NCBI GenBank assembly: GCA_030651475.1
Contig: JAUSEW010000002.1
Location: 19,927 to 83,926, forward strand
Direction of reading: 5' to 3'
Origin: Candidatus Levyibacteriota bacterium
Lineage (GTDB): Bacteria; Patescibacteriota; Microgenomatia; Levybacterales; UBA12049
Length of the DNA: 64,000 nucleotides
Below the pieces are notes generated by a model, which was not told the DNA's origin, searched no databases, and worked only from the letters and a program-made list of their open reading frames with translations. Numbering within the stretch: position 1 is the stretch's first letter; each line of letters starts with the position of its first letter. The translations under genes and the position numbers were made by a program. Positions 16,540 through 44,318 of the stretch are shown here, piece after piece.

Positions 16540-16570
16540 TTATGACCCTTCGACTTCGCTCAGGGTCATA
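16540..16570. repeat. palindromic element (family 1) in prs 5' region
   Basis: TTATGACCCTTCGACTTCGCTCAGGGTCATA lies after a TTGATA-17-TAGAAT promoter. Confidence 0.7.
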
Positions 16571-19179: not shown

Positions 19180-19180
19180 T

Positions 19181-19624: not shown

Positions 19625-19632
19625 AATACTCA

Positions 19633-19656
19633 CTTAAATAATATATATTATTTAAG
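19633..19656. promoter_or_regulatory. second 24-bp AT palindrome, near-identical to 19156-19179
   Basis: CTTAAATAATATATATTATTTAAG, upstream of ORF 19741. Confidence 0.55.
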
Positions 19657-19740
19657 TATTTGAGACGTTGGAGTTTTTGAAATGATTAGGGTAGAATCTA
19701 AAATAGAGGATAATTGGGATTATAGGGTTTGGTTTTATTT

Positions 19741-27323: not shown

Positions 27324-28109
27324 ATGACAATGCGACACATTGAAAGCAAAGAAGGATTAGGAGAATTCGTTGGGGATCCCAATGGCGATAAAGCCAAATT
27401 AGCAATAACTCTCATAGAGGGCGCAAGAAAATGGAGGGAGACATTTGGAGATATTTCTTTGCCATCTGTTACAGCTTCAGTTGAAGTAAAACCATTTTCT
27501 CCAGAAGCAGTTACTAATTATTGGCGAACAAAATTACAAGCAGATGGTAAAAGAATAGGACTTTCTATTTCCGTGCCAGATTGTAGTTGGACAGAAGCAG
27601 AAATAAGAAAGCCAATGGTAGATGTTAAAGGAAACGAAGTTCCTTCAATGTTAGTTTATGTTCCGCAAGAGCTTATGGGAAAAGAAGGATTAGTAAGATT
27701 AGGACAGATGTATCCAAAGATGAATAACTGGTCTGTTCAAGAAGACACTAGCGTGCAAAATAGTCCTGATGCAAACAAAAAAGGCGGATGGGTTAAAGTA
27801 GAAGCAATTGTTGATGCCCCAAATCTTAATACTACTCAGGAAGATCTTGAACAGCATGCCAAAGATAAAAAATATTTCGCACAAACATTAAATACTTTTA
27901 TTCTTGCTTCTCAAGCAAATAAAGATTTAACAGGACGTTACTTAGATGAAGGATCGACATGGTCTCGTTTGCTTGGTTCTCGTCGCGCGAGCGGTGTGGT
28001 TCATGCCGACTTCGGTTCGGGTGGGTACTTGTTTGTCGGTTGGGGTCTGGGTCCGCAGGGTCACGGTTCGGGCATAGGCGGGCGTTTTGAAGAAGTGAAG
28101 AAAGCTTAA
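27324..28109 (+). CDS. DGR variable (target) protein, C-terminal CLec/FGE-like variable region
   Basis: C-terminus carries the VR (..GSTWSRLLGSRRASGVVHADFGSGGYLFVGWGLGPQGHGSGIGGRF..). Confidence 0.8.
   Translation: MTMRHIESKEGLGEFVGDPNGDKAKLAITLIEGARKWRETFGDISLPSVTASVEVKPFSPEAVTNYWRTKLQADGKRIGLSISVPDCSWTEAEIRKPMVDVKGNEVPSMLVYVPQELMGKEGLVRLGQMYPKMNNWSVQEDTSVQNSPDANKKGGWVKVEAIVDAPNLNTTQEDLEQHAKDKKYFAQTLNTFILASQANKDLTGRYLDEGSTWSRLLGSRRASGVVHADFGSGGYLFVGWGLGPQGHGSGIGGRFEEVKKA
27971..28097 (+). repeat. DGR variable repeat (VR)
   Basis: 127 bp aligned to the TR without gaps. 26 of 28 mismatches are at TR adenines. Confidence 0.85.
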
Positions 28110-28430
28110 ACCTTTGCCTCTTTGTCCTTTTAGCTCCTTTGACTTTCGTTTTTTTATAGTCCTCCCAAACTATTTTATGCTACAATACTCCTGAGAGTAG
28201 GTTAATACATTCTTAAGCTAAGACTTTAGAATTACCGAAATCCTTGATTTTCAAAATTTTGTTCGATTTCTGTTGTTTATGGATAACAGAAGAATACAAA
28301 AGAAAAACAAGACACTTCTTGCCTAATGCTTGCGAAGATGTCCTGAGCTTGTCGAAGGACTACTTCCAAATAAAATACAACAGTAAGAGTAATCAAACTG
28401 TGGTGGTAATTGATGGCATAAGGCAAAAAA

Positions 28431-28557
28431 GCTTGGTTCTCGTAACGAGAGCAATGTGGTTAATGCCAACTTCAATTCGGATGGTAACTTGAATGTCAAT
28501 TGGAATCTGAATCCGCAGAATCACAATTCGAACATAGGCGGGCGTTTTGGAGAAGTA
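28431..28557 (+). repeat. DGR template repeat (TR)
   Basis: AAY-codon-rich (Asn) copy: ..NVVNANFNSDGNLNVNWNLNPQNHNSNIGGRF.. Confidence 0.85.
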
Positions 28558-28564
28558 GCTTGTT

Positions 28565-28861
28565 TTAAATTTGAGTTAATGATCTTTTCCATCCTCCAAG
28601 CATCCTGCCAACTTCTTGGAGGAATTGTTCTAACTGTAGATATTTATTATTGTCAAGAGATTGAACATCTTTAGCCAGTCTGAGCAATATCTTTAAAAGA
28701 TCTAATGAGATGATAGCTTTTTCAAGATAAAGAAGCTTTTTGTCTTTCTGACTTGTTCCTGCCATAAGGATTAGTTCGAAAATTGTAAGCGTTAGACTAT
28801 CCAGCTTTTGTCCTAAAGTGTAGCGGTCTTTTTTGGGGAAAAGCTTCAGGTATCCATACAA
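28565..28861 (-). CDS. avd: accessory variability determinant (Avd), four-helix-bundle family
   Basis: C-terminal EVGRMLGGWKRS matches Bordetella phage Avd EVGRILGSWIAR, and FPKKDRYTLGQKL is the helix-2 signature. TTG start. The frame stays open upstream through the (AC)n tract. Confidence 0.75.
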   Translation of the reverse strand: MYGYLKLFPKKDRYTLGQKLDSLTLTIFELILMAGTSQKDKKLLYLEKAIISLDLLKILLRLAKDVQSLDNNKYLQLEQFLQEVGRMLGGWKRSLTQI

Positions 28862-28911
28862 TAATTTGTAGAAATCATAGAATCTTTGAATAAGAGGTAT
28901 GTCAAAGTCAG

Positions 28912-28932
28912 GTGTGTGTGTGTGTGTGTGTG
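28912..28932. repeat. (GT)10 dinucleotide microsatellite between divergent avd and RT
   Basis: GTGTGTGTGTGTGTGTGTGTG. Confidence 0.9.
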
Positions 28933-28947
28933 AATATCTTTATCTGT

Positions 28948-30012
28948 ATGCATATTGATACATTCGACGGTGCCGAGCACCGCTCAGTATCAACCCTGAG
29001 CGAAGTCGAACGGGTTGATTATTCCAAGCTTATCTCAATAGAAAATTTATTTCAAGCATGGAAAGAGTTTAGAAAAGGAAAAGCTAAGCGTTTTGATGTT
29101 GCGGAATTTGAAAGGAATTTAGAAGATAATTTATTTGAATTACATTTAAAATTGAAAAATAAAAGTTATAAACATGGAGGTTACGAATCATTTTATGTTC
29201 ACGACCCAAAACAGCGGCATATTCATAAAGCAAGTGTTATAGATAGGGTAGTTCATCATCTGCTTTACACCTTTTTGTATAAGTTGTTTGACAGAGTATT
29301 TATTTATGATTCCTATTCCTGCAGACTTAATAAAGGAACCCATAAAGGAGTAAAGAGATTAGCGGAACTTACAAGAAAAGTTTCTAAAAACTATACAAGA
29401 CCTTGTTTTGCTTTAAAATTAGATATTAAAAAGTTTTTTGCCAGCGTTGACCATGAAGTTTTACTTACCTTACTTAAGAAAAAGGTTAAAGATAAAGATA
29501 TTATTTGGTTGTTAGTACAGATAATCAATAGTTTTTACTCGGATAAAGGAGAAGGGAAAGGAATGCCTCTTGGCAATTTAACCAGTCAGGTTTTTGCCAA
29601 TATTTACCTCAATGAACTTGACCAGTTTACAAAACATAAGTTAAAAGTAAAATATTATCTTCGTTATGCAGATGATTTTCTGTTTTTATCAAAGAATAAA
29701 GAGTTATTGTGTAAATATATTGACGTATTAAGACAATTCCTGAGCAACGGACTTAAACTTGAACTTCATCCTAATAAGATTATCTTTCGTAAATTAGAAT
29801 GGGGAATTGATTTCTTAGGCTACATAGTTTTACCTCATTATATTTTGCCAAGGACAAAAACTAGAAAAAGGATTTTTAAAAAATTAAAGGAAAATGTTGG
29901 TTCAGAAAACTTTAATCAATCCTTGCAATCCTATTTAGGATATTTAGGGCATGCCAGCAGTTTTAAAATAGCCCAATCTCTACTTTACTTTTACCAAAAA
30001 TATAGCTTATGA
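28948..30012 (+). CDS. DGR reverse transcriptase
   Basis: N-terminus ENLFQAWKEFRKGK resembles Brt. GNLTSQVFANIYLNELD carries the DGR SQ motif. RYADDFLFL is the YxDD motif. Start could instead be GTG 28912. Confidence 0.85.
   Translation: MHIDTFDGAEHRSVSTLSEVERVDYSKLISIENLFQAWKEFRKGKAKRFDVAEFERNLEDNLFELHLKLKNKSYKHGGYESFYVHDPKQRHIHKASVIDRVVHHLLYTFLYKLFDRVFIYDSYSCRLNKGTHKGVKRLAELTRKVSKNYTRPCFALKLDIKKFFASVDHEVLLTLLKKKVKDKDIIWLLVQIINSFYSDKGEGKGMPLGNLTSQVFANIYLNELDQFTKHKLKVKYYLRYADDFLFLSKNKELLCKYIDVLRQFLSNGLKLELHPNKIIFRKLEWGIDFLGYIVLPHYILPRTKTRKRIFKKLKENVGSENFNQSLQSYLGYLGHASSFKIAQSLLYFYQKYSL
28990..29018. repeat. palindromic element (family 1, inverted orientation) within the RT 5' region
   Basis: TCAACCCTGAGCGAAGTCGAACGGGTTGA. 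Confidence 0.65.
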
Positions 30013-31316: not shown

Positions 31317-31420
31317 TAACTCGCATTGGGTTTTCCTATTGAGATAAAAAGTTCATAATTCTTTTAAGTGTGTTTTTTTGGCTATTGACAAAGTTATAGC
31401 TTTGTTATAACATGGTTATA

Positions 31421-31441
31421 ACCCTTCGATAAACTCAGGGT
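31421..31441. repeat. palindromic element (family 1) between promoter and antitoxin start
   Basis: ACCCTTCGATAAACTCAGGGT, preceded by TTGACA-17-TAACAT. Confidence 0.65.
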
Positions 31442-31447
31442 AAATAT

Positions 31448-31690
31448 ATGGAACAAACAGTAATGCAAGTTGGCAATTCTTTAGCAGTCACTTTACCCAA
31501 GCAATTTGTTGACGCTAAAAAAATAAAAGCAGGACAAAAAATGCTTGTGGATGCAGACAATGATCTCTCTGTGGTTCAAATAAGAACAAAGAATTCTAAA
31601 GCCTCCAAGATTACTCCCGAATTTAAGAACTGGCTTGACGCATTCAATACCCGCTACAAGACAGCGCTTACTGAGCTTGCAAAAAAGTGA
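31448..31690 (+). CDS. AbrB/MazE-family antitoxin
   Basis: VGNSLAVTLPK swapped-hairpin motif. Overlaps doc by 4 nt. Confidence 0.7.
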   Translation: MEQTVMQVGNSLAVTLPKQFVDAKKIKAGQKMLVDADNDLSVVQIRTKNSKASKITPEFKNWLDAFNTRYKTALTELAKK

Positions 31691-32079
31691 GACAGACTAA
31701 GCACCTTATCCTCGACGAAGTAATTGCGATACACGATAGCATGATCGAACAGTATGGAGGAAGTTTCGGAATTCGCGATATTGGACTACTTCAGTCAGCG
31801 ATTAGCAGGCCGCAGGCATCATTTGGGGGCGTTGATCTTTATCCAACTATATTTGATAAGGCTGCCGCTCTTTTTCATTCATTGATGTTCAACCATGCTT
31901 TCATGGATGGAAACAAGAGGACAACCATGACAACAACTGCCAGATTCCTTGCAATAAATGGTTACTTGGTTGTAGTAGAACAAAGAGAATTTGTAGATTT
32001 TCCTCTTCGAGTGGAGAATAAACACCTCTCTCTTGGGGAAATCGTCGCTTGGCTGAAGAAACATACAAAGAAGATGTAA
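31687..32079 (+). CDS. doc: Doc toxin (Fic-fold kinase)
   Basis: HAFMDGNKRT Doc motif, 130 aa. Confidence 0.8.
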   Translation: MRQTKHLILDEVIAIHDSMIEQYGGSFGIRDIGLLQSAISRPQASFGGVDLYPTIFDKAAALFHSLMFNHAFMDGNKRTTMTTTARFLAINGYLVVVEQREFVDFPLRVENKHLSLGEIVAWLKKHTKKM

Positions 32080-32092
32080 TTTGGGAGAGATA

Positions 32093-32107
32093 AAATTCCC
32101 CAAACCT
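32093..32107 (+). repeat. 3' motif AAAATTCCCCAAACC (copy 1 of 5)
   Basis: Starts 13 nt after the doc stop. Confidence 0.5.
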
Positions 32108-32161
32108 CACTAATTTGTCATATTTTTTGTTTTTAAGCGTGATTTTTGTTATAATAAATAT

Positions 32162-32641
32162 ATGGGTAAAGATACAGCTCCTGTCGTTGATGATTTTAAA
32201 GCTTACTCTGACTGGGTTAAGCTTCCTGAGGGAGCGTCCAATGAAAAGTTGACTAATTGGTTTGACCAGATTTTTGTTCAGTGGAGGCGTGATCCTGGAG
32301 ATTTTACTAGCAGCGGGTTGTTGAAAGCAATGAAGGAGTTGGGTCAAAAGGACTGGACATTTACGTTGACTTTGTTTAAAGGTCAGAATCGGAACGATGT
32401 ACCGGATGGAATAGAAACTGTAGCAAGAGAAGCTTATAAAGGTTCTAATGCTTACCATCACGATATTTCTGCTCGGGCAATCGGATTTGCTAACGCTGAC
32501 TCACAGTTGTTTTTAGGAGTATCCCAAGATCATTTGACGTTGAGTAGACGGAGAGCTGGTTTGATCAAAGCCTTCAAAGCAGATGAGGTTATTGGTCTCC
32601 GGGCGGTGGCGCCTAAAAAAGACGCGAGCAAAATAGGCTAA
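32162..32641 (+). CDS. hypothetical protein
   Basis: 159-aa ORF. Confidence 0.4.
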   Translation: MGKDTAPVVDDFKAYSDWVKLPEGASNEKLTNWFDQIFVQWRRDPGDFTSSGLLKAMKELGQKDWTFTLTLFKGQNRNDVPDGIETVAREAYKGSNAYHHDISARAIGFANADSQLFLGVSQDHLTLSRRRAGLIKAFKADEVIGLRAVAPKKDASKIG

Positions 32642-32690
32642 AAGGTTTCGTGCTCAACTTCTGGGGTCTGGCTTCGGAGTCAGATCTCAT

Positions 32691-32706
32691 AAAATTTCCC
32701 AAACCT
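32691..32706 (+). repeat. 3' motif AAAATTTCCCAAACC (copy 2)
   Basis: Downstream of 32162..32641. Confidence 0.45.
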
Positions 32707-32724
32707 CTTTGCATTTTCAAAATT

Positions 32725-33507
32725 CTACTTTAATCTTTTTATATCGTCTTCTGTTGGCAGACGAACTCCATGTATCCAGATTGGTTCTTTGCGTTCGTTG
32801 AGAATCTCTAACAATGCACTTTCATAGTCAGGAACAGAAAGAGATAGGGTTCTCGTAAGAAGTTTTCTTTTGATGCTTTGGGCAACTAGTCTAGTTCTAA
32901 TGTTTCTATCCGTTTGTATTTTTTGATTTTGATAATTAGCCCATACTGTTTGCGGAAAGATTAAATAAGAAAACCTATCGCTTGGCACTATATGTTCTTT
33001 TGGTTTTCCTATGGTTTCGAGACCTTCAAATCTTTCTTTTCTGGATGTAAATAAAAAGTGACTCGATTTTTTCATTAATTCATCCATAGTCTCATTAATT
33101 ACAATAAGAAATGAGGAGGATATTCTAGCTTCTAAAATTTCCTTTGCGCCGTTTTTATCCACCTCTTCTTGGGACCATGCGGGTAATTGATCAATTGGGT
33201 CAGGCTCTTTAAGACGATAGCTTGGCCTTTCTGTCATTACCGGCAGAACAGAAATATTCCTAAGATAAAGGGCATCTTCTAAATTGTTAGAAAAAGCTTG
33301 AAGGTTCTCATGCAAGTGCGGAGGGAAAATCAGTCTAAAAGATATAAAATCTTTAGGAGATAGATCTCCAGATCCAAAATATAATGAGCTTTCCCTTCGT
33401 AATCTACCAGCTGATTTAAGGCCATCTTTTAGTATGCTGTTAATAATCTCTGCCCGTTGTGCGGCAACTTCAGCTGTAGCATTAATCTTAGGCAATACTT
33501 CTGACAT
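32725..33507 (-). CDS. hypothetical protein
   Basis: 260-aa ORF. Confidence 0.4.
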   Translation of the reverse strand: MSEVLPKINATAEVAAQRAEIINSILKDGLKSAGRLRRESSLYFGSGDLSPKDFISFRLIFPPHLHENLQAFSNNLEDALYLRNISVLPVMTERPSYRLKEPDPIDQLPAWSQEEVDKNGAKEILEARISSSFLIVINETMDELMKKSSHFLFTSRKERFEGLETIGKPKEHIVPSDRFSYLIFPQTVWANYQNQKIQTDRNIRTRLVAQSIKRKLLTRTLSLSVPDYESALLEILNERKEPIWIHGVRLPTEDDIKRLK

Positions 33508-33615
33508 ATAATTTAAAGTCGCTAAATTGTATCAGTCTGATATTATACAATAAATTGCGTTTTTAATCTTGTTAAGGACGAAGTTTTAATAATTTTTCTG
33601 ATATAATGAGAGTTC

Positions 33616-35160
33616 ATGTTGTCCAATATATCAAATTCACAAAAAATAACTGTTATGATCGGGGTTATGCTTGCCATACTTTTGTCTGCGCTTGATCAGA
33701 CGATTGTGGCAACCGCAATGCCGCGAATTGTCAGCGAACTCAAAGGATTAGAACACTTCAGCTGGGTATTTACCGCCTATATGCTTGCCTCTACGGTAAC
33801 GGTGCCAATATACGGAAAACTGTCTGATATTTACGGAAGAAAATGGTTCTTTTTCGGAGGAATTGTCATTTTTATTTTGGGTTCAATCCTGTCAGGGCTA
33901 TCGCAAAATATGACGCAGCTTATTGTCTTTCGCGGTTTGCAGGGAATAGGCGGAGGGGCAATGATGGCAAATTCATTCGCTATTATCGGTGATTTATTTG
34001 TTCCGTCAGAACGGGGAAGATGGCAGGGAATGTTGGGAGGAATGTTTGGCTTGGCTTCTGTTATTGGCCCGACGCTTGGCGGATGGATTACGGATAATGC
34101 TTCATGGAGGTGGAATTTCTTTGTTAATATTCCTATAGGTATTTTAGCGCTTGCGGCAATCGGATTTTTGATGCCAAAAATTACTTCAGGTATAAAAGAA
34201 AGAAGCATTGATTATCTTGGCGCTCTCGCCTTAACGCTTGGATTGGTTCCGTTTCTTTTGGCTCTTGTTTGGGGAGGAAATCAGTATGCTTGGAGTTCTA
34301 TGATGGAAATTGGACTATTTATTATGTCGATGATATTTCTTACCCTTTTTGTTATTACAGAGCGGTTTGCCAAAGAGCCGATTATACCATTGGGACTTTT
34401 TAAAAATTCCATCTTTACTGTTTCAGTTATCATTACTTTTTTAACCGCCATGGGAATGTTTGGCGCCATACTATACATCCCTCTTTTTTCCCAAGTAGTT
34501 CTTGGATTAAGCGCTACGAATTCGGGCACAATTCTGACGCCTCTAATGTTTGCGTTGGTCATCGCAAGTATTATTTCCGGGCAAGTTATTTCCAAAACGG
34601 GAAAATATAAGCGGATAGCGATATTTGGTATGGCAATAGTTGTGGTAGGGATGTATTGGCTTTCAACAGTCACTTCTACGACTACTCAAGTGGAATTACT
34701 GATGCGGATGATTGCGTTGGGAGTTGGTTTGGGAATAACAATGCCTATTTTTACTATCGCCGTGCAGAATTCATTTGACAATTCTAAATTAGGAGTGGTT
34801 ACTGCTTCAACTCAAGTTGCCAGAAGCATTGGGGGAACAGTCGGAGTGGCGATATTTGGAAGCGTATTGAATAATGCTTTGACGGGGAAATTAGGCAATA
34901 TGGCAACCGATCCGTTCGTCCAAACATTATCCAAAGCAAATCCCAAGTTCGCAATTACGAATATTAGTGCGAATAATTTACAGGGATTTCTCGATGTCTT
35001 TACAGGAGCAATTACAGAGGTTTTTCTTCTCGGTACCATTCTTATGGGCGTAGCTTTTGTCGTCACATTTTTCTTAAAAGAAATACCGCTGCGAAAATCT
35101 CACAGCGTACGGCCAATTCTTGAGGAAGCGGGAATTGAAGTAGCAGTGGAAGAGGAATAA
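33616..35160 (+). CDS. MFS transporter, DHA2 (EmrB/QacA) family
   Basis: 14-TM topology with LDQTIVATAMP and GKLSDIYGRK motifs. Confidence 0.85.
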   Translation: MLSNISNSQKITVMIGVMLAILLSALDQTIVATAMPRIVSELKGLEHFSWVFTAYMLASTVTVPIYGKLSDIYGRKWFFFGGIVIFILGSILSGLSQNMTQLIVFRGLQGIGGGAMMANSFAIIGDLFVPSERGRWQGMLGGMFGLASVIGPTLGGWITDNASWRWNFFVNIPIGILALAAIGFLMPKITSGIKERSIDYLGALALTLGLVPFLLALVWGGNQYAWSSMMEIGLFIMSMIFLTLFVITERFAKEPIIPLGLFKNSIFTVSVIITFLTAMGMFGAILYIPLFSQVVLGLSATNSGTILTPLMFALVIASIISGQVISKTGKYKRIAIFGMAIVVVGMYWLSTVTSTTTQVELLMRMIALGVGLGITMPIFTIAVQNSFDNSKLGVVTASTQVARSIGGTVGVAIFGSVLNNALTGKLGNMATDPFVQTLSKANPKFAITNISANNLQGFLDVFTGAITEVFLLGTILMGVAFVVTFFLKEIPLRKSHSVRPILEEAGIEVAVEEE

Positions 35161-35161
35161 A

Positions 35162-35731
35162 TTATTCTTTGGGTTCAGGAGGAAGGAATTCTTCACCGCC
35201 ATTATCAGTTTTGTCAGCTTGTTGGGGGTATTCTTCAGGTTTAAGCCAATAAACATAAGGACATCCGGTTGCTTGGCGCGCAACTTTATCCCATCCCGAA
35301 GTACTGCATTTCTTCATCTTTTTGCCATTGGCGGTTGTATAAAGAACTAGTTTCTCTCCGCACTGGGGGCATTCTTCATCAAGCGGTTCTGTTGTACCGT
35401 TAATCCATTCGATGTAATCGCATCCGATGGCTTTTTTGGCTTCTTTATCCCAACTGCCACTGGAGCATTTTTTCATTTTCTTGCCAAAGCGGGTAACTGC
35501 CAAAATTAATTTACTGCCGCATTTGGGACATTTCTCGTCAAGCTCTTGAGGTTCAACCTCAAACCATTTGACATAATCGCATCCTTCATTCTTTCTGGTT
35601 TCGGGATTCCATGAGCCCTTAGAACATCTTTGAAGCTTGCGTCCTGTTTTGGTAATAGTTATTTCTGCAAGCGGAGAACCGCAATTAGGACACATTCCTT
35701 CTGGAGTTTTTTGTTCATTTGCTTTTGCCAT
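35162..35731 (-). CDS. triple zinc-ribbon protein (topoisomerase-type C4 zinc finger repeats)
   Basis: Three ~55-aa repeats CPxCGxKL..GKKMKKCS.GSWDK....GCDY..W. Confidence 0.6.
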   Translation of the reverse strand: MAKANEQKTPEGMCPNCGSPLAEITITKTGRKLQRCSKGSWNPETRKNEGCDYVKWFEVEPQELDEKCPKCGSKLILAVTRFGKKMKKCSSGSWDKEAKKAIGCDYIEWINGTTEPLDEECPQCGEKLVLYTTANGKKMKKCSTSGWDKVARQATGCPYVYWLKPEEYPQQADKTDNGGEEFLPPEPKE

Positions 35732-35878
35732 AGGTTTCTATAGTACTGTGTTTAAAAGAAATAAGTCAAGGAGCATATTACGAAACAATTTAGGAAAGTC
35801 ATAATTTTGTCAGGTAAATGTCAAGCCGCAGATTTTTTTTCGATTACACTTATTGTCGAGGGTAAATTTTACTAACAG

Positions 35879-38560
35879 ATGACAACTACAGAAATCAAAG
35901 GGTTTGAAATTGGTAACGCTAGGGAAGCTATAGGGCAACTTCCGTTAACAGTTTTCTTAGAAGATCCCCGGGCGAAGAGAATAGATCTTGTTGGAGGAAA
36001 AGGAGCAAGTCTTGCAGAGCTTAATACAATTCCCGGCGTAAAAGTTCCAGAAGCTTTTGTTATAACCACTTCTTTATGCAATCAACTTCTTGAGCAGAAC
36101 TCCGAAATCAGAGAAAAAGTCGATAAATTAGATAGTCTATCGGTTAGTTGGCTAAGAGCAAAGCTAGCCGGAGATAGTGGGGAAGCGGAACGATTAGAGA
36201 AACAAATGTCTATTGGCGGAAAATCTTTAAGAGAGCAATTGATTGGCATAGAGTTATCACCAGGCGTAAAAAACGAAATTATTGAAGCTTACGGTAAATT
36301 ATGTGAGACAACTGGAGTAGAAAATGTAGATGTTGCAGTGCGGAGTTCGGGTAAGAGTGAAGATGGAGGAAGCAACAGTTCTGCCGGACAATACGAAACC
36401 TTTCTTCATCAAGAAGGAGAAAAAGAAGTACTAAATTCCGTTAAGAAATGTTTAGCTTCTCAATTTACAGAAAGAGTAATTGTTTATAGGAATGAGGCAA
36501 GACTTGCAATTACAGATCAAGTATTAAAAGATTATCCAGAAGATATAGAAAAGGCATTGGCAGAAAGCAAAAAGTTTTCCCATAGAGAAGCAGGGCTGGC
36601 AGTTGTTGTACAGAGAATGGTAAATGCTCATTCTGCAGGAGTTGGTTTCTCAATAGATTCGATTAGCGGAGCAAAAGTTGCCCGCATAGACGTAAATTAT
36701 GGTTTAGGTGAATCAGTCGTTAGCGGTAGTGTTACCCCAGACGCTTATTTTGTTGATCCTATTACAGGGGAGATAGTCGGGCGAACTTTAGGAGCAAAAA
36801 CAGTTAGAACTGTTTACATTGAAGGAGGGACGGAAAACGTAGCGGTTCCAGAAGAAGAAAGAAAGAGATTTGTTCTTCCAGATGAGAAAATAAAACAGAT
36901 TGCACGTGCGATTACAGCCATAAGCGAACATTATGAAAAACCCATGGACACAGAATTTGCTTTAGGTGCGGATGGAGAAGTCTATTTTACTCAAGCAAGA
37001 CCCGAGACAGTTGCTTCAAATAAGGATCAGATGGTAGTACGAATGAAAGAATATGTTGTTTCTGAAGAGGCAGCTGGGGCAGCAGAGGAAATTTTTAAAG
37101 GTGGAGTATCCGGTTGTCCGGGAGCTGCTGCCGGAATAAAGCTAATTGCAGGGACGGTAGATGAAGCAAATATTCTTCTTAAGTCTGACAGATATAAAGG
37201 CAAAGAGGTAATTTTGGTGACTGATAGAACCGACCCTGATTGGGTTCTTATAATGAAAAAGGTTAAGGGTATTATTACTCGTGTAGGAGGACCGAATTGT
37301 CATGCTGCAATTGTTAGTCGTGAATTAGGTATTCCTTGTCTTGTAGGAGTAGGGGATAAAATAGAAGCCCTTAAGGATAGTGAGGTTCAAGAAATAACAT
37401 TAGATGTTAGAGGATTGAAAGTTTACAAAGGCAAATTGCCTTTGAAGGAGGTAGGAGTAGATATAGATGTCAGAGAAATACTGAATAATCCTACAGAAAC
37501 CATAGTGGGAGTAAATATGGCGATGCCTGAAGAAGCGAGGAAACTGCATGCCTTAGCGGAATTGGGAGAAAAGTTTAAGATTTCTCTTTTGCGTATTGAG
37601 TTCCTTCTACAGGATATTGGAGTACATGTAAATGCCTTAGTGGATTTCGATGAGAGAAAGATAGATCCCAACTCCGATTTATATAAAGGAATAGCAGATA
37701 AAATTGCAGGCTATGGAAGTGGAAGAGAGTACTATATAGGGAAACTTTCGGAAGGGATTGCCAGCATCGCTTCTACTTTCCCCAATAGCGATATAGTTCT
37801 AAGAACTACAGATTTTAAAACGAATGAATATCGAAGCTTAATTGGCGGTGAAAGATACGAGGTCATTGAAGCTAATCCCATGATGGGAGAAAGAGGGTTA
37901 GTCCGCTCGTTATTTCCAAAAAATAGAGCGGCATTTAAATGGGAGTTAGAGGCAATTAAAAAAGCTAGAGATATGGGATATAAAAGTGTCAAGATTATGT
38001 TTCCTGTCGTACGGGATCCTAAAGAATTAACAGGCGGTCCTGAATTAGTTGCAATCCGTTTTAAAGGTGCATATGAGATTATGGAAGAGGTTGGTATGAG
38101 AAGAGGCAAGGATGGGCTGAAGGTTGGAATAATGGTTGAGGATCCGGCAAATGTAGTAAGGATAAATGATTTCATTGATGCGGGTCTAGATTTTATTTCC
38201 TTTGGGACGAATGACCTTACCCAATTTACTTTGGCAGTTGATAGGGATAACGGCGTGTTAGCAAAGATACCATGGTATGGGGAAACAAATCCTGCGGTTG
38301 TCAGTCAAGTCAGGAGAGTGATTCAGATTTGTAAGAGCCGTGGTGTGGAAACTGGCATTTGCGGTAATGCCCCATCTAATAGTCCAGAATTTGTCCGAAT
38401 GTTAGTTGAAGAAGGAATAGATTCAATTGGAGTTACGCCGGATAGATTATTGCCGACTTATGAATTGGTGAGGCAGGAGGAGAGAAAAAGAAAGATAAAG
38501 GGGGGAACAATATTTATTAGTGCTTCTGGAAGCGTTGGCGGAAATGGTAGCCGTCCATAA
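35879..38560 (+). CDS. ppsA: phosphoenolpyruvate synthase / PEP-utilising enzyme
   Basis: VGGKGASLAEL ATP-grasp start, GPNCHAAIVSRELGIPCLVG phospho-His domain and SFGTNDLTQFTLAVDRDN PEP-binding domain. Confidence 0.8.
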   Translation: MTTTEIKGFEIGNAREAIGQLPLTVFLEDPRAKRIDLVGGKGASLAELNTIPGVKVPEAFVITTSLCNQLLEQNSEIREKVDKLDSLSVSWLRAKLAGDSGEAERLEKQMSIGGKSLREQLIGIELSPGVKNEIIEAYGKLCETTGVENVDVAVRSSGKSEDGGSNSSAGQYETFLHQEGEKEVLNSVKKCLASQFTERVIVYRNEARLAITDQVLKDYPEDIEKALAESKKFSHREAGLAVVVQRMVNAHSAGVGFSIDSISGAKVARIDVNYGLGESVVSGSVTPDAYFVDPITGEIVGRTLGAKTVRTVYIEGGTENVAVPEEERKRFVLPDEKIKQIARAITAISEHYEKPMDTEFALGADGEVYFTQARPETVASNKDQMVVRMKEYVVSEEAAGAAEEIFKGGVSGCPGAAAGIKLIAGTVDEANILLKSDRYKGKEVILVTDRTDPDWVLIMKKVKGIITRVGGPNCHAAIVSRELGIPCLVGVGDKIEALKDSEVQEITLDVRGLKVYKGKLPLKEVGVDIDVREILNNPTETIVGVNMAMPEEARKLHALAELGEKFKISLLRIEFLLQDIGVHVNALVDFDERKIDPNSDLYKGIADKIAGYGSGREYYIGKLSEGIASIASTFPNSDIVLRTTDFKTNEYRSLIGGERYEVIEANPMMGERGLVRSLFPKNRAAFKWELEAIKKARDMGYKSVKIMFPVVRDPKELTGGPELVAIRFKGAYEIMEEVGMRRGKDGLKVGIMVEDPANVVRINDFIDAGLDFISFGTNDLTQFTLAVDRDNGVLAKIPWYGETNPAVVSQVRRVIQICKSRGVETGICGNAPSNSPEFVRMLVEEGIDSIGVTPDRLLPTYELVRQEERKRKIKGGTIFISASGSVGGNGSRP

Positions 38561-38573
38561 GTAAAAGGTTTTC

Positions 38574-38912
38574 TTATTCAGAAAAAGACTTTTGTTTTTT
38601 GAGAGCAGCGATATAAACTCCATATAGTGCGAAATCAAATGCCGCGCTAGGGGTACGCTTGACGCAATTTATCCAAGGACCGAATTTCCAGAGAGCTTCT
38701 GCTACTTGGCTATGGGAATGTACTATACCATTTGTTATGTCCGACGCTAGTTGAAGGAGCTTTTTCTCTCCTCCCTGAAGAGTTAAAGAGCTATCCATGG
38801 GAACGTTATTGTTGGGATATCCGTAGAAGCTTGCTAAAGTTCTAACTGCAGTTTCAGCCTGTTCAATAGTGGGTCTAAGCAAATCTGAATGTCTTCCAAG
38901 ATCTTTTTCCAT
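38574..38912 (-). CDS. hypothetical protein
   Basis: 112-aa ORF. Confidence 0.35.
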   Translation of the reverse strand: MEKDLGRHSDLLRPTIEQAETAVRTLASFYGYPNNNVPMDSSLTLQGGEKKLLQLASDITNGIVHSHSQVAEALWKFGPWINCVKRTPSAAFDFALYGVYIAALKKQKSFSE

Positions 38913-38970
38913 GTGCCAAATTATAAGTCTGTATTAATAGATTGTCAATAATTTCTGTTATAATGTTTCT

Positions 38971-39591
38971 GTGAAACTTTTTTTGGCTTCGGAAGTAAAA
39001 AATCCTCAAACGACAAAGAAATTGGAGGAATATATGGGCGGATTTAAAAGAAAGAAAATTGCTTATATTCCAACCGCCGGAAATGGGGAAGGATGGGGAT
39101 CTTGGAAAAGCGGCGGATCTTGGAAGCTGGTTCAAAAACTTGACGCGGAAATTACTTTATTGCAATTAGAAAATTATTGGGATAAAGATGTAATAAATAA
39201 ATTAGAGGGAAAAGATGTTATTTGGTTTGCAGGAGGGCAAGCGGGATACCTTATGTATTGGATAAGAAGAACCCAAATTGATAAACACATAAAAAGAATA
39301 TTGAATAACGGTACTCTTTTTTTGGGTTCTAGCGCAGGAAGTATGATTACAGGAAAAACATTGGATGTTACAGGTTGGTACATTAAAGAGAATGAGTACG
39401 GGGCAAACGTTATTCCCGGTCTTGGTTTAGTTGATTTTGACATTTATCCTCATTACCAAGAAAGCTTCCTTAATGAAATAAAAAGTCATTATAAAGGCAA
39501 TAAGTTATATTTGCTAAAAAATGGGGAAGAGATTATTGTCGAAGATCAAAAGATCACTGTAATAGGAGAAGAAAGAATAGTTACCGGTTAA
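38971..39591 (+). CDS. peptidase S51 (dipeptidase E-like) family
   Basis: IAYIPTAG and LGSSAGSMI motifs. Confidence 0.6.
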   Translation: MKLFLASEVKNPQTTKKLEEYMGGFKRKKIAYIPTAGNGEGWGSWKSGGSWKLVQKLDAEITLLQLENYWDKDVINKLEGKDVIWFAGGQAGYLMYWIRRTQIDKHIKRILNNGTLFLGSSAGSMITGKTLDVTGWYIKENEYGANVIPGLGLVDFDIYPHYQESFLNEIKSHYKGNKLYLLKNGEEIIVEDQKITVIGEERIVTG

Positions 39592-39605
39592 AATAAATCC
39601 CGGTA

Positions 39606-39620
39606 AAATTCCCCAAACCC
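39606..39620 (+). repeat. 3' motif AAAATTCCCCAAACC (copy 3)
   Basis: Starts 14 nt after the stop of 38971..39591. Confidence 0.5.
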
Positions 39621-39703
39621 CAGAGCGCAATCTCCACGCATTATAACAGTCAGTGGTACGGCATTGACATGAAAAAGTAATTGTGATAGATTGTCGCTAA
39701 TAA

Positions 39704-40098
39704 TGAACGAAGCATTAAGGCCGGAAAATTCAGGAAAACCAAACATTATAAATACCACTATTTTGGTAAAAGAAAATGAGGTCGTAATTCCGACAGTCGA
39801 TGGTAAGCCATATAGAGAAAGAAAGCCCGCCCAATTGGGAAAAAGATTTGTTTGCGCACAGGAAATAGTGAGCGTATCGACTCGTGAAATTGTAGATCCT
39901 AAAACAAATGAATCCACTATGGTTACTACTCAAACATCCGAATTACAATCGGGCGAATTCAAAGATACAAATGGAAATTCTATTAATTTAGGTTGCGGAA
40001 CTCAAGTATTATGTACAAAAGCATCTGATGGTATACCATCTTGTTGTGATATTCCTATGACTTTAGTGCAGCCGAAGCCTCTTCCTTCCTCGGATTAA
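39704..40098 (+). CDS. hypothetical protein
   Basis: Preceded by TTGACA-17-TAGATT. Cys-rich C-terminus. Confidence 0.35.
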
Positions 40099-40137
40099 GA
40101 TAATAAAATTATACCAGGTAATATTTTGGGTTGAGAG

Positions 40138-40152
40138 AAAATTCCCCAAGCC
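40138..40152 (+). repeat. 3' motif AAAATTCCCCAAGCC (copy 4)
   Basis: Downstream of 39704..40098. Confidence 0.45.
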
Positions 40153-40652
40153 TACGCTGTAATTAATTTTAGGATTTCTTTTGGAGATAGTGTTCCATCA
40201 ATAAATCGGATACCGAGAGCTTTTGCTTCTTCCTCATTTTTGTCTGCCCATTCAAGAACTACCTGTTTTTGGAAATCTGTTTTTCCCATAGGATTTTTTC
40301 GGCTTTGATGATCGAGTCTTTGAATCAGTACATTCTTTGGGACTTTAAGAAAATATATTTTGTCAAACAAATCTATCATCTTTGACGCATTGCCTGAATT
40401 CCCAAATAAGTAAATATCAGGATTTTGTGCAAGAAAATTCTTCAAGAATTTTCTATCCCAAAGAAATTCGTGGTTGTCCATAAATTCTTTTCCTGCATCA
40501 CGAGGGAAGGGAACTTTTTTCTTTTGTGAATCATACCAACCATGTAATCCTTCCAACTCATCGGTATCAAAGACATTTAATCCCATTTTCTTAAACTCTT
40601 TTGAGAGATGGGTTTTTCCTGCTCCTGATGGTCCAATAATCAATATTTTCAT
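40152..40652 (-). CDS. P-loop NTPase / small-molecule kinase-like protein
   Basis: IIGPSGAGKTHLSK Walker A. Confidence 0.6.
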   Translation of the reverse strand: MKILIIGPSGAGKTHLSKEFKKMGLNVFDTDELEGLHGWYDSQKKKVPFPRDAGKEFMDNHEFLWDRKFLKNFLAQNPDIYLFGNSGNASKMIDLFDKIYFLKVPKNVLIQRLDHQSRKNPMGKTDFQKQVVLEWADKNEEEAKALGIRFIDGTLSPKEILKLITA

Positions 40653-40721
40653 AGATTAATTATACCTTAGTATTTCAAATTATGGTAATACTTTCAAACA
40701 CGGCATTTTATTTAAAAATTC

Positions 40722-40730
40722 TGCTATAAT
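40722..40730 (+). promoter_or_regulatory. extended -10 promoter TGCTATAAT (family AAAATTCTGCTATAAT)
   Basis: TTAAAAATTCTGCTATAATC lies 5-7 nt upstream of the TTG/GTG start of 40737. Confidence 0.5.
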
Positions 40731-40736
40731 CAGGTT

Positions 40737-41075
40737 GTGATAATTACGAAAACAACTCCTTTTACCAAAGAAGAAATTAGAAAGTTAAGAGAGCAATTTG
40801 GCGTTTATATAAAAACAGTTATTGATATCAAGAAAAAGATTTGTTCTGCTGGTTGTGATAGGCATTTTGAATCAGAAAAAATTCTTCTTGACGCTGGATC
40901 AAAACAAGAAGATATCTGGGGTGGAGGATTGGATATCGAAACAAAAATTATAGACTGTAACTCTTTTATCAATATCAGACCTGCTGATAAAAATACCAGT
41001 AATGAGATTCAAGACGCTAATAAAAGGAAGAAATTTGAAATTTTGACAAAGTATTTCTTTGGAGAAATCTTATGA
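40737..41075 (+). CDS. hypothetical protein
   Basis: 112-aa ORF with a non-ATG start. Confidence 0.35.
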   Translation: MIITKTTPFTKEEIRKLREQFGVYIKTVIDIKKKICSAGCDRHFESEKILLDAGSKQEDIWGGGLDIETKIIDCNSFINIRPADKNTSNEIQDANKRKKFEILTKYFFGEIL

Positions 41076-41338
41076 ATAATAAAGTGGCCTTATCTTCTTT
41101 GGCAATGGATTTGAAGAGGGTAGCATTGGGATACCATCGCGGATCTTGGGCTTTAGCGAATCGCTTTTTCGCTGAAGCATTAAAAAGAAGAGGAGAAATA
41201 AATAAAACCTCATTGAAGCCTTACCTAATAAGATTTTTAAAGGATATGGACAAACTTAAAGATGAACGAGATAACATGAAAAAAGCAGAAGATGCTTTGA
41301 TGTATAGCACGCTTTTCCAAAACGCCGCTCTTAAATAA
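41072..41338 (+). CDS. hypothetical protein
   Basis: 88-aa ORF overlapping the previous gene by 4 nt. Confidence 0.35.
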   Translation: MNNKVALSSLAMDLKRVALGYHRGSWALANRFFAEALKRRGEINKTSLKPYLIRFLKDMDKLKDERDNMKKAEDALMYSTLFQNAALK

Positions 41339-41346
41339 GATTCGGT

Positions 41347-41360
41347 AAAATTCCCCAACC
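41347..41360 (+). repeat. 3' motif AAAATTCCCCAACC (copy 5)
   Basis: Downstream of 41072..41338. Confidence 0.45.
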
Positions 41361-41372
41361 TGTTATAAAATC

Positions 41373-41381
41373 TGCTATACT
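41373..41381 (+). promoter_or_regulatory. extended -10 promoter TGCTATACT
   Basis: AAAATCTGCTATACT lies 14 nt upstream of ATG 41396. Confidence 0.45.
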
Positions 41382-41395
41382 TCTGGTGTTGGAAT

Positions 41396-42343
41396 ATGAA
41401 ATTCAAGAAGGCTCTGATAATAAATATCAGCGAAGATAAATTAGACCCGACCTATTGGGAAAAGTTAGATAAGTTAGTTGAGAATAGAGTAGGTCTTCCA
41501 AAAGACAGTCCTCAAATTCAAAAAGAATTATCTGATGCAGATTGTATATTAACAGGATTTCAAGTAAATATTGGTAAAAAGGAAATAGATTCTGCGCCAA
41601 ATTTAAAATATATCAGTGTTTTGGCTACGGCTTATGGAAAAATTGACGCAAATTATGCAAAGAAAAAAGGGATAGTTGTAACTAATGTTCCGGGTTATGC
41701 TACAGAATCAGTAGCGGAACTCGTTTTTGCAGTAATTTTAGACAAAATAAGGGAGATAGCTAAAGCAAAGAAGCGGGGAAGTAAGGGTGATTATTCAGAA
41801 GTAGGATTAAAAGCAACAGAGATAAAGGACAAAATATTTGGAGTAATTGGTTTGGGAAGAATTGGAAGAAGAGTAGCGGAAATTGCAAAAGGTTTTGGGA
41901 CAGATGTCAGATATTGGTCGAAAAATAGAAAAAAGGATTTAGAGAAAGCAAGCATTAAATATCAAGCTGCCGACAAATTAATTTCCCAAGCGAATATAAT
42001 TTCTCTCCATTTGGCAGAAACTCCTGAAACAAAACATTTTTTGAACAAAACAAGGATAAATAATGTTAAATCAGGCAGTTTGATTATAAGTACAGTTCCC
42101 AATGAAATTACAGACTTAATTGCATTGGAAGATAGACTTAAAAAAGGAGATATAACTTTTATTACTGATCATGCAGATGAATTAGATCCAAAAGACGCTA
42201 AACGATTATCTAAGTATGAAAATTGCATATTCTATCCACCTATTGGTTATATTTCGGATGAAGCAAGGATTGCCAAGCAAGAGATTTTTATTGGTAATAT
42301 GGAAAGTTTTTTAAATGGAGAACCCCAAAACGTAGTGAATTAA
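41396..42343 (+). CDS. D-isomer-specific 2-hydroxyacid dehydrogenase
   Basis: GVIGLGRIGRRVA NAD-binding motif. Confidence 0.8.
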   Translation: MKFKKALIINISEDKLDPTYWEKLDKLVENRVGLPKDSPQIQKELSDADCILTGFQVNIGKKEIDSAPNLKYISVLATAYGKIDANYAKKKGIVVTNVPGYATESVAELVFAVILDKIREIAKAKKRGSKGDYSEVGLKATEIKDKIFGVIGLGRIGRRVAEIAKGFGTDVRYWSKNRKKDLEKASIKYQAADKLISQANIISLHLAETPETKHFLNKTRINNVKSGSLIISTVPNEITDLIALEDRLKKGDITFITDHADELDPKDAKRLSKYENCIFYPPIGYISDEARIAKQEIFIGNMESFLNGEPQNVVN

Positions 42344-42381
42344 ATCTCGATAGCTTCCAAAAGATTTTAGAATTAAAATTC

Positions 42382-42390
42382 TGCTATAAT
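42382..42390 (+). promoter_or_regulatory. extended -10 promoter TGCTATAAT
   Basis: TTAAAATTCTGCTATAATC. ATG at 42399, about 8 nt after the -10, so the transcript is leaderless. Confidence 0.5.
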
Positions 42391-42398
42391 CTTCAAAG

Positions 42399-43148
42399 AT
42401 GAGCTTTACTTTAAAAGACTATAAAAAGATAAGAACGCCTTTTGCATTTTTTGATGAGACGGGAAGCATTAATGATAAAGCTAATAGATTTTTCTGCCTA
42501 GGAATGATTAAATGCATGCAGCCGTTTTTCCTTGATTCAAGAATTAGGGAAGTGCGAGAAAGGAATCATTTTTACGATGAAATTAAATGGAATACTTTAT
42601 CAAAGGCAAAGTCAGCAGTGATTTTGGATATAATAAAAGCCGTTTTCGATACGCCGGGCATATATTTCTCATGCATAGTTATTGATAAAAACAATGTAAA
42701 TTTTGAAAAAGAATTTGATAATAATCCATATAAAGCTTACCAAGAATTTACCGAAATTCTTTTAAAGCAAGGCATAGAGGAGGACGAGATATTAACGATT
42801 TTAGCGGACTTCGTTACCACTCCTAAAAATATTAAATTTGAAGTTGATGTTAAACATAACATCAATAAAAATCTAGATAGATTAGCAATTGGAGGAATAC
42901 ATAGGGTGGATTCAAAAGGAGTAAATATAATACAAATTGTAGATTTGTTTATAGGGGCGGTTTCTTATTCTTACAAAATAAATTTGAAATTGGTATCAGG
43001 GGACAAAAATAAAATTAAGGTTTTAAATGCTATTTTACGTAAGCTTAATATGAAAAGTTTTGCAGGAGGATTAAACTTAAAATACTTCAAAGTGTTTGAG
43101 CATAATAATGGACTAGGAACAGGAAACAAAAAAGGGCCATCATCCTAA
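42399..43148 (+). CDS. DUF3800 family protein
   Basis: N-terminal FFDETGS, 249 aa. Confidence 0.5.
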   Translation: MSFTLKDYKKIRTPFAFFDETGSINDKANRFFCLGMIKCMQPFFLDSRIREVRERNHFYDEIKWNTLSKAKSAVILDIIKAVFDTPGIYFSCIVIDKNNVNFEKEFDNNPYKAYQEFTEILLKQGIEEDEILTILADFVTTPKNIKFEVDVKHNINKNLDRLAIGGIHRVDSKGVNIIQIVDLFIGAVSYSYKINLKLVSGDKNKIKVLNAILRKLNMKSFAGGLNLKYFKVFEHNNGLGTGNKKGPSS

Positions 43149-43220
43149 CGGTTGACGCCCTATTTATAAATATATGTTATCAGATGTTAGTATGAGTGTC
43201 AATAGTCTATTTTATAATTT

Positions 43221-44318
43221 ATGAATTTGTCGGTTGGGATAGTTGGGCTGCCGAATGTGGGGAAGAGTACGCTGTTTAATGCGCTTCTAAAAAAGCAGGC
43301 GGCATTTGTGGCAAATTATCCTTTCGCCACAATTGAGCCAAATGTCGGAGTTGTTCCTGTGCCGGATTCAAGACTTCAAAAGTTAGCAGAAATTACCAAG
43401 GAAGAAGAAAAAATGTCCGCGTTTCCTCCGATAAAACCAGCTATTGTAAATTTTGTGGACATTGCCGGACTTGTTAAGGGTGCCAGTGAGGGAGCGGGTT
43501 TGGGAAATAAATTTTTGTCTCACATCAGAGAGGTTTCGATAATTGCTCATGTTGTCCGCGCGTTTGAGGATTCAGATATTATTCGTGAAGGTTCTATGGA
43601 CCCCAAAAGCGATTACGAAACTATAAATACAGAGCTGATGCTGGCTGATTTGCAAACAGTTAAGCAGGCCCAAGGCAGGGCTAGGAAGTTTCAGAAGCAG
43701 TCGGAAAAAGACGCAATTGATAAATTGTATAAAGGTTTGGATAGCGGAAAACCCGCAAGGGAAATAGAGCTGACGGATGAAGAGCGGGAATTCGCAAATA
43801 CCTTTTTTCTGCTTTCTGCAAAACCGGAACTTATTGTCTTGAATGTTTCGGAACAAACGCTGAAAGACGCGGACAAGATAATTCAGAACTACGCGGAATT
43901 GTTGGGAATTAGTAAGGAAAAGTTTGTTGTCATATCTGCCAAAATCGAAGCGGAGCTGGCAGAACTTTCCGAGGAAGAACAGAAAATATATCTTGCGGAT
44001 TTGGGCTTACAAACTTCAGGTTTGGAACGACTTATCAAAAAAGCCTACGAAACTCTTGGTTTAATCTCGTTTTTAACTTGCGGGGAAAAAGAGGTAAGGG
44101 CATGGACCATTCGGCTCGGTTCAACCTCGCTCATGGCCTCCGGCACTATACACACTGATTTCATGAAAAACTTTATCAAGGCAGAGATTGTTTCATTTAA
44201 AGATTTTGTAAGTTTGAATGGTTGGAAAAAAGCCAGAGAACAAGGGCGCGCAAGATCCGAAGGCCGGGATTATATAATGCAGGATGGGGAAGTGGTGGAA
44301 TTTAAGATTGGACAATAG
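43221..44318 (+). CDS. ychF: ribosome-binding ATPase YchF
   Basis: GIVGLPNVGKSTLFNAL G1 motif and C-terminal TGS domain. Confidence 0.9.
   Translation: MNLSVGIVGLPNVGKSTLFNALLKKQAAFVANYPFATIEPNVGVVPVPDSRLQKLAEITKEEEKMSAFPPIKPAIVNFVDIAGLVKGASEGAGLGNKFLSHIREVSIIAHVVRAFEDSDIIREGSMDPKSDYETINTELMLADLQTVKQAQGRARKFQKQSEKDAIDKLYKGLDSGKPAREIELTDEEREFANTFFLLSAKPELIVLNVSEQTLKDADKIIQNYAELLGISKEKFVVISAKIEAELAELSEEEQKIYLADLGLQTSGLERLIKKAYETLGLISFLTCGEKEVRAWTIRLGSTSLMASGTIHTDFMKNFIKAEIVSFKDFVSLNGWKKAREQGRARSEGRDYIMQDGEVVEFKIGQ

Follow-up and report, generated by a model that had tools for sequence, protein, structure and literature searches.

A repeated, uniformly oriented motif at gene-order breaks in a hypervariable region preceding ychF in a lineage of Levybacteria

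Introduction

Bacteria of the candidate phyla radiation have tiny genomes with few recognisable mobile elements, and the gain and loss of their accessory genes are poorly understood. The subject here is a 64-kb stretch of contig JAUSEW010000002.1 (64,000 nucleotides (nt), called the window), taken from a metagenome-assembled genome of Candidatus Levybacteria, uncultured members of that radiation, and in particular a short motif, called M, present five times within a hypervariable region of the window. The region lies between a conserved gene encoding a protein of 242 amino acids (aa) and the conserved gene ychF; the remainder of the window is largely given over to housekeeping genes (tRNA synthetases, RRF, DnaB, SSB, EF-P, and pentose-phosphate enzymes). 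Copies of M are direct repeats, all in one orientation, lying where gene content changes between close relatives, and genes unrelated to one another are joined to the same element.

Results

The motif in the window

A search with AAAATTCCCCAAACC, allowing up to two mismatches, finds five matches in the window, beginning at positions 32092, 32691, 39605, 40138, and 41347, all of them on the plus strand. The original prediction, made from the letters of the window, had reported a repeated motif on that strand after plus-strand genes, and in this it is borne out; three of its five starts are exact and two (32093 and 39606) lie one base off. Dinucleotide-preserving shuffles gave on average 0.65 copies, and 0 of 100 shuffles reached five, so the frequency of the motif is above expectation. 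With three mismatches allowed there are 13 matches against 6.6 expected, the additional matches being at the level of chance. A census of k-mers found AAAATTCCCCAA to be the sole dispersed 12-mer, low-complexity sequences aside, with four copies in the window. Together, the shuffles and the census rule out a chance or low-complexity origin of M.

The five copies (M1 to M5, in order of position) begin 12, 49, 13, 39, and 8 nt past the stop codons of the plus-strand genes that precede them. The placement after stop codons is therefore as first described, with measured distances of 8 to 49 nt rather than 13 to 65 nt. M2 and M4 fall between convergent genes. A longer form of the motif, G(A/G)TAAAATTCCCCAAACC, had been claimed for three copies; it is exact in two (at 32089 and 39602), and M5 can be fitted to it by a deletion of 1 nt. 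The corresponding sequences are CATAAAATTTCCC in M2 and GAGAAAATTCCCCAAGCC in M4.

The genes ahead of the five copies are mutually unrelated: a MazE/Doc toxin-antitoxin pair, a gene of 159 aa called gene B, a gene for a peptidase of family S51, a gene of 131 aa, and a DUF5674 gene followed by one of 88 aa. They belong to small independent units (Table 1) of one or two genes each, mostly with their own extended -10 promoter near AAAATTCTGCTATAAT, usually about 6 to 12 nt ahead of the start codon, and about half of the units terminate in M. A second Fic-domain protein, larger (342 aa) than the Doc toxin (31687-32079) and separate from it, is encoded at 24315-25343, in the left part of the accessory region.

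The promoter consensus is found throughout the lineage: in the window at 32143, 33593, 38952, 40715, 41367, and 42375, and also in five of the related contigs introduced below (L141, L191, L192, L193, and L195). Its first seven bases, AAAATTC, are those with which M begins. The closeness of AAAATTCTGCTATAAT to start codons suggests that many mRNAs of the lineage are leaderless or nearly so.

Several mundane origins for M were considered and set aside. A small open reading frame (ORF) across M is at odds with the reading frames and flanks, which on inspection are unlike between copies. Duplication of the 3' end of a tRNA or tmRNA (an att core) is likewise rejected: the sole tRNA gene of the window is that for tRNA-Leu at 59452, and by inspection M has no T-loop-like sequence. 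A DNA uptake sequence, Chi, or a motif of the KOPS type would be spread through the sequence, and M is confined to one region.

Table 1. Positions in the window of the hypervariable region, its units and conserved anchors, and the copies of M
Feature	Position	Strand	Remarks
Hypervariable region	31317..43157	.	Between the conserved 242-aa gene and ychF; contains all five copies of M; synteny maps against L141, L191, L192, L193, L195
Unit 1: MazE-like antitoxin and Doc toxin	31448..32079	+	Pfam MazE_antitoxin, Fic/DOC
M1 GATAAAATTCCCCAAACCTC	32089..32108	+	12 nt past the Doc toxin stop codon
Unit 2: 159-aa gene B with its own promoter TTTTTGTTATAAT, some 6 nt upstream of the ATG	32143..32641	+	No family match
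M2 CATAAAATTTCCCAAACCTC	32688..32707	+	49 nt past the stop of gene B; genes on either side convergent
Decayed promoter-like TTTTCAAAATTCTACTTTAATC after M2	32714..32735	+	No plus-strand gene behind it; counterpart is TTTTCAAATTTCTGCTATAATC in L192, L193
Multi-zinc-ribbon protein gene, conserved anchor	35162..35731	-	Conserved in L141, L193, L195
Unit 3: promoter and peptidase S51 gene	38952..39591	+	Gene called at 39034-39591
M3, extended form TTAAAATAAATCCCGGTAAAATTCCCCAAACCCC	39588..39621	+	Begins at the peptidase S51 stop codon
Unit 4: 131-aa gene	39703..40098	+	No family match
M4 GAGAAAATTCCCCAAGCCTA	40135..40154	+	39 nt past the stop codon of the 131-aa gene; adjoins the stop codon of AAA_18 (minus strand)
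AAA_18 kinase-like gene, conserved anchor within the variable region	40152..40652	-	Also in L141 (88% nucleotide identity), L191 (80%)
Unit 5: promoter AAAATTCTGCTATAATC, DUF5674 gene, and 88-aa gene	40715..41338	+	
M5, extended form TTAAATAAGATTCGGTAAAATTCCCCAACCTG	41331..41362	+	8 nt past the stop codon of the 88-aa gene
ychF, conserved right-hand anchor	43221..44318	+	All M copies of all genomes are on the ychF strand

The motif in related genomes

Relatives were obtained through homologues of gene B, AAA_18, and YchF. Six contigs belong to the same lineage (L141, L191, L192, L193, L194, and L195), with YchF proteins 76-93% identical to that of the window. They contribute 12 further copies of M, making 17 in seven genomes, and all 17 lie on the strand of ychF and no more than about 12 kb upstream of it. 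When a profile of the 17 copies was run against about 547 kb of sequence, it recovered just those 17, the next match having E = 0.17; about 435 kb of that sequence, from more distant Levybacteria-like loci, contained no M recognisable by the profile. Scanning a genome collection with TAAAATTCCCCAAACC produced at least 120 single matches, apparently due to chance, and a metagenome scan for relatives of AAA_18 found none belonging to the lineage that carries M.

The aligned copies give a consensus of roughly (TAAAATAAATCCC)GGTAAAATTCCCCAAACCC(C)ATTT, the full element measuring 24-35 nt. The left extension TAAAATAAATCCC is found in one subfamily, where it starts at the stop codon, and in three cases (L191, L192-8649, and L193-4188) the gene has its stop codon in a TAA within M. 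A core of 13-15 nt is unbroken in most copies, where adjoining orthologous coding DNA is just 72-88% identical. In L192 and L193, M together with TTTTCAAATTTCTGCTATAATC makes up a module of 50 nt, and decayed versions of it occur in L195 and, at M2, in the window.

The motif can form arrays. In L192 four copies lie within 2.2 kb, in the order 218aa-M-173aa-M-(173aa,117aa)-M-(222aa on the minus strand)-M-promoter-NYN-ychF. Even the reversed unit in this array is flanked by direct copies of M.

Gene order around the motif

Contigs were compared by BLAST maps, using as anchors the 242-aa gene, the multi-zinc-ribbon gene, AAA_18, and ychF. The gene content between the anchors is unlike in every one of the seven genomes. 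Where the flank of an M copy matches another genome, the match is one-sided and ends no more than about 16 nt from M, as is the case with M1 against L141, M4 against L141 and L191, M5 against L193, L192-7105 against L195, L192-9322 against L141, and also L195-1522. Among the genome comparisons made, no copy of M was found inside a block collinear on both sides.

On one side of M the same gene may be followed by different neighbours. The 3' end of Doc and the M behind it are common to the window and L141, similarity stopping at window position 32104, and what comes next is gene B in the window and directly the promoter of an MFS transporter in L141. The unit consisting of the DUF5674 and 88-aa genes is found with its M in L193 as well, with neighbours that are unlike on both sides. 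In L192 the 218-aa gene has an 88%-identical homologue in L195, and the two sequences run together up to the first AAAA of M; beyond that AAAA come M and three more units in L192, but a promoter straight away in L195.

Conversely, the same element may stand behind different genes. The 34-nt element of M3 follows (with 91% identity) the unrelated 218-aa gene in L192, and the M at the 3' end of AAA_18 is preceded by three unlike genes: the 131-aa gene in the window, a 243-aa gene in L141, and a nucleotidyltransferase-like gene of 193 aa in L191. Two copies in L194, as well as M3 and L192-7105, provide cases in which unrelated genes have 26-34 nt of the element in common, counted from their stop codons. 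M2 and the next 35 nt match the motif-plus-promoter module of L192 (85% identity). That the motif may mark the boundaries of cassettes, as was first proposed, is thus supported: in seven related genomes it sits, in one orientation, at breaks of gene order in the hypervariable region upstream of ychF.

A different repeat in sister lineages

Sister contigs L142-L151, whose AAA_18 proteins are 65-72% identical, have no M. In its place another oriented repeat, (TTGGGG)CGGAAAATCAAGC, flanks AAA_18 on either side, for example at 9246, 9792, 16902, and 17449 in L143 and at 272, 7334, and 7881 in L149. The repeat is 14-16 nt from a TATAAT box upstream of AAA_18. Both of the AAA_18 paralogues in L143 lie between copies of the repeat, and the AAA_18 block common to L142, L143 (both paralogous copies), L149, and L150 ends exactly at the repeats, with neighbouring genes that are unlike. 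The arrangement parallels that of M. Homology between M and the sister repeat GGAAAATCAAGC found no support, since there are two alternative alignments, in opposite orientations and neither significant with the profile, and the two are treated as analogous only.

A more distant relative, L167, has four co-oriented intergenic copies of GCTCCGAGGAATAG, at 957, 4105, 5892, and 10560. Next to three of these are three ORFs, all exactly 266 aa long, that may represent a repeated gene resembling an insertion sequence.

Is the motif a signal for transcription?

The position of M relative to genes invites an explanation in terms of expression. M might be a sequence-specific signal at the 3' end, an unstructured, C-rich, G-free element of the RNA or its template that ends or stabilises the transcripts of accessory genes, perhaps as a compact patch for the loading of Rho, as the site of a lineage-specific RNA-binding or termination factor, or as a shield of the next promoter from read-through. 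Fourteen of the 17 copies begin no more than 50 nt after a stop codon on the same strand, and in 11-12 of the 17 the next promoter comes within 10-45 nt, much as an intrinsic (Rho-independent) terminator is placed just after a stop codon and before the next promoter. The corresponding RNA, UUCCCCAAACCCC, contains no G, the core is more conserved than the DNA that flanks it, and a terminator joined to a promoter would account for the conserved 50-nt unit.

Unlike intrinsic terminators, however, M has neither a GC-rich hairpin nor a U tract and is defined by sequence rather than by structure. Among the terminator-like sites between 30 and 44 kb, none with a hairpin and a run of T falls on any of the five copies, in agreement with the initial description of M as no classic terminator. 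Folds of individual copies are mutually inconsistent, RNAalifold found no consensus structure among 14 copies, and a search of Rfam families gave the tRNA-Leu gene alone in the window, without a match to M, and nothing in the six related loci. A classic terminator or structured RNA is thereby ruled out, and the earlier suggestion of a signal for RNA processing or stability gained no positive support, lacking both a conserved fold and a match in Rfam.

The distribution of M also sits poorly with a 3' signal of any kind. All other gene ends in the 64 kb, those of housekeeping operons included, do without it. None of the roughly eight minus-strand genes in these regions (counted from gene tables) has a copy on its own strand, and two copies, L192-9322 and L195-1522, are in divergent intergenic regions, with no same-strand gene upstream. 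Convergent genes 1-17 nt apart are tolerated with no signal of any sort between them, and four plus-strand units of the window lack M despite independent promoters or convergent genes after them. For these reasons a 3' expression signal is considered unlikely, though far from negligible. If M did prove to be a transcript-end signal defined by sequence, this would likewise be unusual for bacteria.

One might look instead to what lies downstream. The 3' end of M is 10-26 nt from the next -10 element in about 9 of the 17 copies, M and the promoter move together as the 50-nt module in L192, L193, and L195 (decayed in the window), and in four genomes of the sister lineages the analogous repeat GGAAAATCAAGC keeps a distance of 14-16 nt from the TATAAT upstream of AAA_18. 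M could then be the site of a DNA-binding protein, serving as operator, silencer, or insulator and often overlapping the -35 region of the next promoter. The spacing between M and the -10 element varies, however, from 10 to 43 nt, which excludes a fixed promoter element, and three copies have no promoter after them. Moreover, it is the upstream unit with which M keeps company while the downstream unit changes (M1 against L141, M5 against L193), and no regulator gene is consistently linked to M. A binding site of this sort seems quite unlikely.

Comparison with known systems

In layout the region calls to mind the arrays of integrons, with their attC sites, including the integrase-less arrays known as CALINs. 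There too one finds small, mostly single-gene and mostly co-oriented units, with a like-oriented repeat behind each; a cargo in which toxin-antitoxin pairs and uncharacterised genes abound; uniformity of the repeats inside a lineage but not across lineages; stop codons sometimes within the repeat; an occasional reversed cassette; and rapid change of gene content between close relatives. Sites of the attC type are imperfect palindromes of 55-141 bp with R'', L'', L', and R' boxes (R'' being RYYYAAC and R' being GTTRRRY) that fold as single strands. M, in contrast, is one contiguous stretch of 24-35 nt, with no palindrome and no RYYYAAC or GTTRRRY boxes: a second conserved box at a distance of 40-120 nt is lacking, as is a consensus fold, and on inspection CCCAAAC/GTTTGGG does not fit RYYYAAC/GTTRRRY. 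No attI or Pc was found, nor any intI among the scanned ORFs of the window and the cargo genes of relatives. Judged as integron cassettes, about half of the units show co-orientation with a site at the 3' end. Unlike the promoterless cassettes of integrons, the units bear their own extended -10 promoters, and genes on the minus strand or without M are interspersed. The region is integron-like in layout but does not qualify as an integron, because M lacks the architecture of attC, the scans revealed no intI, and the units come with promoters of their own.

A second comparison is with the minimal mobile elements of Neisseria, in which exchange is attributed to homologous recombination in conserved flanking genes and no internal repeat is needed. 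Here as there, cassettes of whole genes vary by strain between conserved genes, the bacterium is likely to take up DNA, and no gene for mobility is encoded by the element; the four anchors are conserved, and what lies between them is unlike in the seven genomes. The present region differs in having a conserved, oriented repeat that stands at internal junctions and forms arrays. The term minimal mobile elements, with its reference to Saunders and Snyder 2002, appears in PMC1538595.

The pdif (XerC/XerD) modules of Acinetobacter plasmids are similar in that short sites, some tens of nt in length, bound small modules in varying contexts and in that the recombinase is encoded elsewhere. The pdif sites are of 28 bp, with an 11-6-11 dyad structure, and alternate in orientation, whereas copies of M are all direct repeats, and inspection of the 17 aligned copies discovered no dyad and no arm resembling TTATGTTAAAT. 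Finally, the REP/BIME, Correia, BOX, and RUP repeats are, like M, short, repeated, intergenic, and often just downstream of genes. Those repeats are palindromic or bounded by inverted repeats and are dispersed through the genome in both orientations; M is non-palindromic and confined to one region and one orientation.

Discussion

The favoured reading, which we hold tentatively as quite possible though a little short of probable, is that M serves, at the level of DNA, as a junction element in the cassette-like hypervariable region that one lineage of Levybacteria has upstream of ychF. It is favoured because M is confined to one region, uniform in orientation, and linear and unstructured, with a sequence conserved beyond that of neighbouring coding DNA, and because it forms arrays, abuts unrelated genes precisely where they end, and is always sited at breaks of gene order. 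On this reading units would be gained, lost, and exchanged through recombination at or beside M. The agent might be a site-specific recombinase whose gene lies in another part of the genome, or else RecA, acting after DNA uptake on the 25-50 nt of identity offered by M and the motif-plus-promoter module.

A bolder proposal is that Levybacteria, and perhaps other bacteria of the candidate phyla radiation, possess a new system of cassette capture upstream of ychF, in which single-gene units bearing promoters are inserted and excised, by a recombinase encoded elsewhere, at an unstructured, lineage-specific site of about 24-35 nt. It would be a functional analogue of the integron with another type of site. 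We regard this as rather unlikely. Were a dedicated recombinase to act on M, a new type of cassette system would be at hand.

A number of observations weigh against a role for M at the junctions. Four plus-strand units of the window lack it, those of the MFS transporter, PPDK, 2-hydroxyacid dehydrogenase, and DUF3800. In L141 the homologue of gene B (75% identical) is placed elsewhere, after the zinc-ribbon gene, so that gene B has been relocated between genomes with no intact M on either side of it in L141. The site between the 242-aa and zinc-ribbon genes is empty in L195, and there is no M there. Nor is the breakpoint fixed to the nucleotide: similarity ends after CCCCAAA in M1 against L141 and after AAAA in L192 against L195. 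Pfam searches discovered no domain of an integrase, recombinase, or transposase in the scanned ORFs of the window (most of those of at least 150 aa), nor in the cargo genes of relatives, and M lacks the dyad symmetry or paired binding arms usual for the core sites of recombinases. Lastly, in the sister lineages, positions 125-1541 of L148 correspond to 7568-8627 of L143 in a clean replacement of a segment of 1.0-1.4 kb, between flanks 99.5-100% identical. The breakpoints are away from the sister repeat, and no recognisable repeat was found at either of them, so the region can change without such repeats. The idea of a recombination site, raised in the original prediction, is still an inference, and the absence of a recombinase from what was searched, the want of dyad symmetry, and the regional rearrangements without the motif tell against it.

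Some of the same observations are what would be expected if M were a functionless remnant, spread passively with recombining intergenic DNA, while incoming DNA changed the gene content by homologous recombination in the conserved genes on either side, as has been suggested for the minimal mobile elements of Neisseria. The breakpoints of the recent strain-level replacement in the sister lineage bear no relation to the repeat, gene B changed place without M, and the searches turned up no dedicated enzyme. A remnant would not, however, be expected to keep a core of 13-15 nt intact where neighbouring DNA is 72-88% identical, to have the same orientation in 17 of 17 copies, or to be one element joined to many unrelated genes exactly at stop codons. 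The intact core, the uniform orientation, and the joining at stop codons point to selection or active propagation, and passive spread is judged very unlikely.

Other origins connected with mobile DNA were rejected. The minus-strand genes without a family that adjoin M do not encode a common recombinase, as they are mutually unrelated and match no family. M is not evidently the att site of a phage or plasmid: exact-pattern scans of IMG/VR gave single matches in coding or unrelated contexts, and a BLAST search of plasmids gave one chance match.

Whatever the function of M, a hotspot has been defined by conserved anchors, a boundary repeat with 17 copies in one orientation, and cargo wholly unlike in seven close relatives. 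It provides a concrete and testable handle on gene flow in bacteria of the candidate phyla radiation.

Other features of the window and its relatives

To the left of the hypervariable region is a complete diversity-generating retroelement (DGR), at 27324-30012. Its target gene (27324-28109) contains the variable repeat (27971-28096), and the template repeat is at 28431-28556. The two repeats mismatch at 27 positions, 25 of which are adenines in the template. The ORF of the reverse transcriptase (28912-30012, Pfam RVT_1) starts in a (GT)n run at 28912-28932. A link between the DGR and M was rejected: M is unlike the ends of the DGR repeats, and relatives carry M without a DGR in the stretches fetched.

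A tandem repeat with a period of 7 nt (AAATGAA) occupies 54886-54912, within a minus-strand ORF of 246 aa (54221-54961) that matches no family. In L141, a leader of about 190 nt, possibly structured and with no match in Rfam, lies at 3260-3475 between a consensus promoter and the 243-aa gene, whose product has a weak match to the JAB domain.

A hairpin-forming sequence, GGTTATRACCCTTCGA...CTCAGGGT, is common to 16537-16570 and 31415-31441 of the window, in each case just upstream of a gene, that for ribose-phosphate pyrophosphokinase (16587) and the MazE-like gene (31448), and may be a 5' leader element. Two near-identical AT-rich palindromes of 26 nt, ACTTTAATAATATATATTATTAAAGT (19155-19180) and ACTTAAATAATATATATTATTTAAGT (19632-19657), flank a Trp-repressor-like gene (19181-19624), one immediately ahead of its start and the other immediately past its stop. 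Both are probably operator sites.

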